From contig NC_135252.1 of the NCBI RefSeq assembly GCF_964204865.1, positions 5,332,001-5,396,000 of the forward strand: a DNA stretch of 64,000 nt, read 5' to 3'. Position numbers and translations under genes: made by a program. The notes below the pieces were generated by a model. That model did not search any database and was not told the origin of the DNA. It worked only from the letters and a program-made list of their open reading frames with translations. This document shows, piece after piece, positions 24,121 through 26,987 of the stretch (position 1 is its first letter; every line of letters starts with the position of its first letter). The DNA is from Styela clava. Its lineage: Eukaryota.

Positions 24121-26987
24121 TCACTTGCAGACATTTGAAGTTAATGTTTGATTGCAGGTATCACAGATAACTTTGCAGCAATAGTAAAACTTGCATCCGC
24201 ATTTGTTTGCTATATTTAATGCCTTGATTTCGAATCCTCTACCACAGCATAGATTTTCACATGAATCAAAACCAATTGTGTGTGGCCGGCATTCGCGACC
24301 CTTAGTGGCACACAGTTTAGTGGTATGCTTGAAATATAAGAGATCTGTGTCTTTTATAACATTGTGTGAATTGTCAGACAAAACAAGCCAGTGGAACTCT
24401 CTTTTGCGTCGGATCTTCACCTGAAAACGGGAGTCAACGTTGGATATGACCAATTTTTTTAAATAATTTATTTTCGTACCTACCCATTTTGCGGTGTCAT
24501 ACTTTTGTCTTAATATCCCCGCAACGTGTGAAAAGGCAGGCAAACTTCTCCAACAAGTTGTCAATTCGCAACCTCCTGTCGCTCCATGGCATGCACATCG
24601 GTGCTGCATATTGCTCTTCAAAACCTTAAAGAAGATAATAAAAAATCGTGTACAAAAATATAATGTATTGTTATAAAATATAACGTCATTTACGTTTAGC
24701 CAGACCACAGATAAAGATATTTTGAGTAATTCACAAAGACTTAGCGTCGAGCTCAAATACTTTTTCGACGTAACAAGTCCGATATAATTTCTTTACCAAT
24801 ATTTTTGTCAATTATTGTCAATTTTGAACGGGAGTAAATTTGAAGTTTTTACAAACAGAGCTGGGTCTTTTGTACAGAGCTCCCACCAGCGCTCAAAATA
24901 AGAAATTAATCCCAACTGGATAGTTACTAATTTATTATTTTAAACGTAAAGTTTTTTTTTTCTGAAATCAGACATTTAGGAATTAGTGACGGGAGATTTG
25001 TACAGAAGATCCTTCAGTTGTATATTGCAGCATAACTGATAACACGTCACAGAAATAATGGATATATGCTTTCCGTGACAGTATTTTGTGTGTGACAGTA
25101 TTCAGTATGATGTGTGTTGAGCATAGGGCTGGGCATTTTCGAATACCTGATGATTTTAGAATCGAATCGAATATTTTTTTCAAATCGAATCTCGAATACT
25201 TGGGAGTCAATGAGACATATGTAATTGTATGCAACTTTTTATTGTAATTGGTCTCGTCAACACATGAATTAGTGAAAACATAGAATACGTCACTAAGACA
25301 TATTGTTGGGCGTTCACACACTAAAAAAAAACGCGTTTTTATCAATACCTTACTACAAAAAATAGAATGTCAGAATTGCAGCGAAAAAATTTGGCTTCAA
25401 TAAAAAAAATCGGAATCCAGGTCATTGGCGGAAAGAAAAAACAAGATGACGGCGATTCGAGATTTTGTTCTGAATTGATTCGAATAATTTACTATTCGAT
25501 TCGAAATGCCCAGCCCTAGTTGAGCATCGATGAATGCACTGGAACTTTGATTCAGATTGAATTCTCGTACTTATACTGATTGTACTTTTACAGTTAACAA
25601 AAGTAATACTCACAATTCTTCCTACTTTGTTATTGTGTAGGTTTGTAAAAACTTTATTTTGAAAACGCCGAGTTAATTTCGCAGACTTAGAACGATTGCG
25701 TCCATTAGGTTCCTCTGATTTCAAAGATAACTCCCCAGAATTAAGAAATGCTCTTGAGAAGTATATTCCCCAATCAACATTGTCCGAACAGTCAGACCAT
25801 TGGAACGCATCACTTTTCGGGGCAATTTTGTTCCAACTTTTGTCACATTTGCACCCATCAATGTCTCCATTACTGCAATGTTTTGTTGATGTATACACGA
25901 CAGCCGCTGAACTAAGTGCGTGTAAGAACGCCGACTCGCGACTACCTAAAAATCAGCAAAAATAAAAAAAGAAGATATTATATTTTTTTCAGAAGTTTTG
26001 GTGGCAATTTTTTAACAATCCGTATCCTATATTTTTAACATTATTCTACGCAAGACAGGTACACTAACAAGCATTTGGCATTACCTTTTTTCGGTTTGAA
26101 TCTGAATAATTTCTTCATTTTTGACAAGGAACAATCCCAGTTTCGCTGGCGAAGCTGATTTTGACATTCTTTGATCGTCAATTTCGCCGCAGAAATTATC
26201 GCCACCATACTACTTTGAAAATCTCGACAAATCTGTGAAATCAAACATCAGAAAATTTTAGTTTCACATTTACAATAGAAATCGTGCTTGTAGTAGTAAT
26301 GGTCGGAAGACACTTGATATATTGGTCACTGTGTATCTAAAGTTAAAATATACAAGAGTTTTTCGAATTACGTTTTCGAATAAGTTCAGATAAAACCACT
26401 GTGACGTAAATTTTGTGACATAATCTATAAAAAATTCATATTCCTGGAAGACACATTTATATATATGTATAAAAGTCTAGATAAATATACCAAAGTATAA
26501 ATCTCATATCATTTGACAAGTTTGAACTTTATATGTTTGATAAGAAGCAGATGGGCATGGAACGTTATCTTCAGTTCAGTCAAAATTAAAAATACGCAGT
26601 TTGTTCCTATCGGTGACAATAGTATTAAAATGTATAGACTGATCGCTACCGATCGGAGCAGTTGTCAAGAATATTTAGTATTTCAAAATATTCACACAAA
26701 AAGTGTTTAGCTTCTTGTTTGGTATACAATATAATCACAAAAATACAGATACTCACTTTTCGCTGTTTTTGCTTCAAATACGAGACATTATTGCACCATA
26801 ATTTTGTTATACCATCGTGATCTCCCTGACTTAATTGTCTAAATATGGGATTTTCGTATTACTGGCATTTTCCTAATGAGAATAAAATGTATAAACAAAA
26901 TACTTACAACCATCGGAGCTCGTTGGAAACTATATCTCTGAACTGCGTAAGCAAAATGTAAAGCAGTATAAAGTATACCTTATTCAT
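24121..26987 (-). CDS. Wnt family ligand, divergent, subfamily not assignable by eye; 6 exons, 360 aa
   Basis: Exons (minus) 26987-26908, 26838-26757, 26232-26085, 25945-25614, 24624-24484, 24420-24121 total 1083 nt. Signal peptide MNKVYFILLYILLTQF; 24 Cys in Wnt spacing; motifs ECQNQ..NWDCS, GSRESAFLHALSSA, WSDCSDN, NLHNNKVGR, CACHGATGGC..TCW, CCGRG, CKFYYCCKVIC. Confidence 0.93.
25124..25518. mobile_element. hAT-type MITE in Wnt intron 4
   Basis: TIRs TAGGGCTGGGCATTT / AAATGCCCAGCCCTA; perfect 8-bp TSD GTTGAGCA (25116-25123, 25519-25526); subterminal TCGAA repeats. Confidence 0.9.

Follow-up and report, generated by a model that had tools for sequence, protein, structure and literature searches.

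To our knowledge, the lipid-bearing serine of Wnt proteins is taught as invariant in the family apart from Drosophila WntD. A Wnt gene of the ascidian Styela clava carries threonine at this position, which raises the question of whether its product is still palmitoleoylated, through the threonine, or has become a lipid-free Wnt. The gene lies in a window of 64,000 nucleotides (assembly GCF_964204865.1, contig NC_135252.1, positions 5,332,001 to 5,396,000), by which we mean the whole stretch of DNA that was analyzed and to which the coordinates of the gene refer. A sequence-only reading of this window had described an otherwise intact 24-Cys Wnt with the thumb motif CHGATGGC and had offered natural threonine acylation and a lipid-free Wnt as alternatives.

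The gene, here called Thr230 Wnt, occupies positions 26987-24121 of the minus strand and, in the model built from the window, has six exons with GT-AG introns throughout; its product has 360 residues in a single open frame, 24 cysteines, and threonine at residue 230. Exon 1 (26908-26987; this and all features of the gene are on the minus strand) holds the start codon and a hydrophobic N-terminus, a helix over residues 2-17 in both the sequence and the predicted structure, which we read as a putative signal peptide; it agrees with RefSeq protein P0154 and is joined to exon 2 (26757-26838) in record 12 of sequencing run X5. Exon 2 is a part of the model found both in that record and in record 15 of run X6, and the joint between exons 2 and 3 is absent from the listed contig pieces. 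Exons 3 (26085-26232; Pfam wnt, E 2.6e-8) and 4 (25614-25945; Pfam wnt, E 8e-22) lie on one spliced contig with exons 5 and 6, both of which rest on the model, the Pfam scan, and contigs: exon 5 (24484-24624) contains the thumb hairpin, and exon 6 (24121-24420) encodes the linker, the index finger, and the stop. Scanning four exon pieces against PF00110 (cut-off 20.3 bits) gave scores of 125.6, 78.5, and 34.2 bits for three of them and no match for the exon 2 piece of 27 residues. Translation of the minus strand from 24591 to 24568 confirms the thumb motif (24568-24591, residues 226-233), whose tip falls between predicted strands 221-227 and 235-241 at a pLDDT of about 90, and the ACA codon of Thr230 (24577-24579), which falls on Ser209 in the alignment with human Wnt3a (7drt_A). 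The six-exon model bears out the description of an intact Wnt and is letter for letter RefSeq XP_039266319.2 (P0154); since the RefSeq protein is perhaps derived from the same assembly, it is not independent support for the gene model. An older RefSeq model of 298 residues begins just behind intron 2 and is without the putative signal peptide.

Support for the codon and for splicing comes from contigs of several sequencing runs. Exons 3-6 stand in one contig record in runs X5 and X6, and the 63-base intron between exons 5 and 6 (24421-24483), which is in frame and free of stop codons, is removed from transcripts, as seen in a joint that skips these 63 bases in run X7 and in the same gap in X5 and X6. 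All three runs carry exon 5, and with it the ACA codon, with 0 differing letters. X5, X6, and X7 are three runs of one study, no run is on record as RNA, and their RNA nature is a guess from the intron-less contigs. A genomic-type contig of X4, which comes from a second sample, shows 5 differences over 963 bases and leaves the motif untouched, and X1 (possibly the source) is identical. P0001, an earlier version of the RefSeq protein, departs from the present one at two residues elsewhere and likewise has threonine at the lipid site. The cover of the codon thus extends over X1, X4, X5, X6, and X7, with X9 (another organism), X10 (raw, about 6% read), and X11 outside it. An untranscribed gene is rejected by the spliced contigs of X5, X6, and X7. 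Thr230 Wnt is an intact, spliced, and transcribed ascidian Wnt with threonine at the lipid site.

Several other features of the locus were observed. Contigs of the spliced runs are present over intron 2 (26756-26233) at roughly half the exon depth, possibly through intron retention. Intron 4 contains, at about 25070-25520, a high-copy repeat that is covered hundreds of times more deeply than the gene, is often joined to itself, and resembles a small inverted-repeat element. The neighbors in the window are a trypsin-family protease just upstream (29359-30067, minus strand), a TCP-1 chaperonin subunit (12982-13389, minus strand), and an SKA2-like gene (52266-52685, plus strand), none with an apparent tie to Thr230 Wnt.

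How rare threonine is at this position was judged from a panel of the 150 best representatives of a search over 1.84 billion proteins, which was picked by likeness to Thr230 Wnt and is not a census. The 16-residue hairpin is held by 149 of these. Without the 10 rows from ascidians, an origin that for 3 of the rows rests on trees rather than on names, 139 remain, in which the site is serine in 137, threonine in one (lamprey Wnt5), and cysteine in one (sponge). Among 35 further search matches 31 have serine and 4 are unmatched, and a metagenome scan gave 67 loci, of which 16 carry the thumb motif in 7 distinct forms, all with serine. The claim that the site is near-invariant thus holds outside ascidians. 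No orthologue from another stolidobranch ascidian is found among the named matches of the protein searches, and a search of the ESM Atlas returned general Wnt clusters only. Natural departures at the lipid site elsewhere comprise a hemichordate protein in which the residue is lost (P0005), the sponge cysteine (P0136), and the threonine of the lamprey Wnt5-like protein (P0138).

Apart from this residue, the hairpin of Thr230 Wnt retains all four cysteines, His-Gly, Gly231, Thr237, and Trp239, so that the disulphide hairpin of Porcupine substrates (C-x-C-H-G and C-x4-C-W) is present. Its neighborhood has changed: alanine at the position of Wnt3a Lys204 and threonine at that of Lys215, each found in 0 of the 139 panel rows, remove both of the usual basic residues, and alanine at Leu208 (2/139) and glycine at Ser211 (4/139) are likewise uncommon. 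The second basic residue is also absent from several Styela Wnts that have serine. The hairpin score of 30.4 lies below the panel minimum of 31.9 (panel rows being scored in-sample), and among intact Styela Wnt genes only one has a more unusual hairpin. In the index finger tyrosine stands at the position of Trp333; according to the excerpt of PMC8316347, Lys215 of Wnt3a lies in contact with Wntless, and signaling depends on Trp333. The predicted structure has a mean pLDDT of 90.8 with Thr230 at the hairpin tip, and Foldseek gave 10 matches at E <= 0.001, every one a Wnt, the best being Wnt3 (6ahy, E 4.9e-23). Based on this model, Thr230 Wnt is predicted to have a normal Wnt fold with thumb and index finger.

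Threonine recurs within the Styela genome. A family search gave 73 exon matches, and the stretches around them hold 17 readable hairpins, of which 11 have serine, 4 threonine, and 2 lysine; outside the Wnt5 cluster, threonine is found in 4 of 10 Wnts and serine in the other 6. The four are Thr230 Wnt, Wnt2 (C18), Wnt6 (C16:18.75 Mb), and a gene at C3:8.00 Mb, and their frequency differs from the 1/139 of the panel at 5e-5 in Fisher's test, a figure that ignores kinship. Threonine extends beyond Styela in two of these cases, as the C3:8.00 Mb gene and its Ciona savignyi partner both have it, and in Wnt2 it is common to Styela (XP_039265163), Clavelina (XP_076820358), and Ciona (Q4H308 cluster), with differing flanks (KTG, PTQ, ATD). 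A tree of 88 rows requires four changes between serine and threonine to account for the 7 ascidian threonine rows, and a single origin, with these rows in one clade, is rejected (p-AU 0.008), which argues for repeated threonine events. Because threonine is common across ascidian Wnts, most of the uniqueness of Thr230 is gone.

The orthologue group of Thr230 Wnt comprises five rows, the others being the Ciona intestinalis XP_026690559 cluster, C. savignyi H2YME8, and the unnamed proteins P0008 and P0227, and is supported by SH-aLRT values of 99 (mixture-model quick tree) and 93 (another tree) at identities of 36-39%. These four rows share the linker deletion of Thr230 Wnt but keep serine. Threonine is therefore not common in this group, whereas a common threonine is what the sequence-only reading would have taken against its observation, and Thr230 arose on the line to Styela; as the Ciona orthologues have serine, it is recent and not yet proven by time. 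Ascidian Wnt2, with threonine at the same site, differs in that it belongs to another subfamily and its threonine is old.

The subfamily of Thr230 Wnt can be narrowed. In our trees other Styela genes occupy the places of Wnt1, Wnt2, Wnt3, Wnt5, Wnt6, Wnt7, Wnt10, and Wnt16, where the Wnt1 and Wnt7 reference clades were labeled partly by motifs that we take to be diagnostic, and a gene beside Wnt6 is presumably Wnt9 by its motif, the reference set having no named Wnt9. A reported loss of both Wnt4 and Wnt8 in ascidians (excerpt of PMC6060547) leaves Wnt11 and WntA for Thr230 Wnt and the C3:8.00 Mb gene, whose groups join in the free tree. With a reference set (three trees, profiles, and AU tests) that has no named WntA or Wnt9, AU tests rejected neither Wnt11 (p-AU 0.054) nor Wnt4 (0.052) as the partner of the Thr230 group, and Wnt16 is rejected (0.031). 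The phylogenetic check that had been suggested therefore delivered the state of the orthologues, serine in all four, and left both Wnt11 and Wnt4 standing as subfamilies. Profile scores of the group are 273.5 for Wnt4, 265.1 for Wnt11, and 262.0 for Wnt16; both the best score and the best named matches are thus Wnt4, although ascidians reportedly have none and a place in Wnt4 is neither recovered nor rejected by the trees. In RefSeq the protein bears the label Wnt-4-like, which was assigned automatically.

A separate observation concerns the Wnt5 cluster at C10:8.81-8.99 Mb (L053-L072). Two copies with open last exons at 8896750 (plus strand) and 8931495 (minus strand) have a rebuilt thumb with neither Ser/Thr nor His-Gly and a shortened index finger. 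A further copy at C10:8922415 (minus strand) has lysine at the lipid site, an open last exon, and an altered C-terminal finger; the copy at C10:8903257 (plus strand) has lysine and is broken, and in those at 8887 kb and 8938 kb the break runs through the thumb. Judged by their sequences, the copies at 8896750 and 8931495 are much better candidates for WntD-like, lipid-free Wnts than Thr230 Wnt.

The direction of the changes outside this cluster is informative. All 11 Styela serine codons at the site are TCN, one base from ACN, and in each of the four Wnts that have replaced serine, out of 10 outside the cluster, the new residue is threonine, which keeps the hydroxyl. If the site were free, with Pro, Leu, Phe, Ala, Tyr, and Cys reachable from TCN by one base as alternatives, four out of four single-base changes would arrive at threonine with a chance of 1e-4 to 8e-4; if the loop fits alanine or threonine only, the chance is 0.06. 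We infer that ascidians tolerate threonine at the lipid site more than other animals do, which may reflect their Porcupine or just fast sequence evolution.

Given that the hydroxyl is kept at every single-copy change and that Porcupine and Wntless are intact, Thr230 is most likely palmitoleoylated. The Styela Porcupine gene has an open frame, matches the human enzyme at E 8.9e-87, and keeps the catalytic histidine; Wntless is open (E 2.8e-129), and Frizzled-family genes are present. We propose that selection keeps a hydroxyl at the site because this residue is the acylated one, that Porcupine would palmitoleoylate Thr230, and that the acylated product would then be exported by way of Wntless and engage Frizzled as other Wnts do; as a whole, this course of events is probable. 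Acylation of threonine may be less efficient than that of serine, and because both flanking basic residues are lost it may even be weak or absent. A natural swap of the same kind is known at another MBOAT O-acylation site, Thr3 of amphibian ghrelin, which the related enzyme GOAT acylates at a reduced level when the enzymes are mammalian (excerpt of PMC8316800), although enzyme, substrate, and fatty acid all differ and the comparison is an analogy only. Human Porcupine is described as having four zinc ligands (excerpt of PMC10213974), of which only the first cysteine aligns in the Styela enzyme, a single-frame gene at L034:1180-2682 (C14); these differences may be a hint that the enzyme handles its substrates differently.

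The chief alternative is that Thr230 Wnt, in the manner of Drosophila WntD, carries little or no lipid. Its secretion would then need neither Porcupine nor Wntless, it would act over a longer range or through different receptors, and the threonine would be a structurally tolerated leftover. Lipid-free Wnts do exist, as WntD was shown to be one and, like Thr230 Wnt, has no serine at the S209 position (excerpt of PMC2427328), and Wnt3a S209A at high expression still binds Wntless (excerpt of PMC8316347). The loss of both flanking basic residues together with three further hairpin changes, the tyrosine in place of the index-finger tryptophan, and the shortened linker would also fit such a protein. 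The linker, however, is equally short in orthologues with serine, and the 24 cysteines and the hairpin are intact. Moreover, the feature that marks WntD, a site with no acylatable hydroxyl, is absent from Thr230 Wnt, which keeps both the hydroxyl and the whole hairpin motif. The hydroxyl is retained in all four independent single-copy cases, whereas the Styela copies apparently freed of lipid show lysine or a rebuilt thumb and never threonine, and the predicted structure matches lipidated Wnt3 far more closely than it does WntD (E 4.6e-7, the WntD structure being partial). Thus, of the two outcomes first offered, natural threonine acylation is favored, and a WntD-like protein seems unlikely.

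A second alternative, which we consider very improbable, is that selection on the gene has relaxed or that the gene is in decay, so that the threonine has no functional meaning. The branch is long (0.83 to 1.54 changes per column), identity to the Ciona orthologues is only 37-39%, and many conserved positions are lost; because just 35 of 45 conserved non-cysteine positions are kept, the second lowest value of 62 rows, general relaxation could account for Thr230. Yet the serine-bearing orthologue P0008 is equally divergent (34/45), and the frame is open, the six exons are spliced, all 24 of 24 cysteines are present, and transcripts occur in three runs. A sequencing or assembly error is rejected and retains practically no probability, as the same codon is found in X1 and X4-X7 and in the earlier RefSeq allele, with nothing found in its favor; the contigs of two studies overturn this objection.

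Palmitoleoylation of Thr230 thus remains the reading that we favor, and in comparison with known systems Thr230 Wnt is a real but modest variant of the lipidated Wnt system. With human Wnt3a, Wnt3, Wnt5a, Wnt7a, and Wnt8a and Xenopus Wnt8 it shares PF00110, the 24 cysteines, the fold, and a disulphide thumb with a hydroxyl at its tip. It differs from them in having threonine instead of Ser209, the Porcupine-substrate residue, as well as alanine and threonine for Lys204 and Lys215, tyrosine for Trp333, and a shorter linker. The sole unlipidated exception among Wnts that is named in a 2023 review is WntD (excerpt of PMC10112924). The main texts of two tunicate Wnt surveys (PMC6060547, PMC8220140) and the supplement of the latter are, in the parts covered, silent on palmitoylation, Porcupine, and the serine, and the excerpts of PMC12612157, PMC10213974, PMC6333880, and PMC8189181 contain nothing on threonine in Wnts. 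The same holds for that of PMC9134921, which describes O-palmitoylation in general terms as occurring on serine or threonine. The full-text literature searched, a scope that ends short of the primary papers on Porcupine specificity and the supplements of PMC6060547, likewise yielded nothing on threonine at the Wnt lipid site or on S209T. The finding is of moderate significance, since serine to threonine is a conservative swap and mammalian Porcupine is said to accept an engineered threonine: serine or threonine, but not cysteine, reportedly serves in the acylation of Wnt3a.

The point of interest is therefore the repeated, ascidian-wide shift from serine to threonine rather than the Thr230 gene alone. 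Speculatively, and with better chances of being wrong than right, ascidian Porcupine might have a widened acceptor range, and Wnts might have moved repeatedly from serine to threonine as a dial on lipid addition or removal by Notum, giving paralogues with different secretion rates and ranges while tandem Wnt5 copies dropped the site, so that Ser-linked, Thr-linked, and lipid-free Wnts would coexist in one genome. For annotation, the case cautions that loss of the serine does not equal loss of the lipid. If threonine acylation is true, a swap that nature has made several times, and in one case has retained for long, would demonstrate that palmitoleoylation of a Wnt through threonine works in living animals. 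The Thr-bearing ascidian Wnts would then be ready-made substrates for learning which features of the site matter to Porcupine, Wntless, Notum, and Frizzled.
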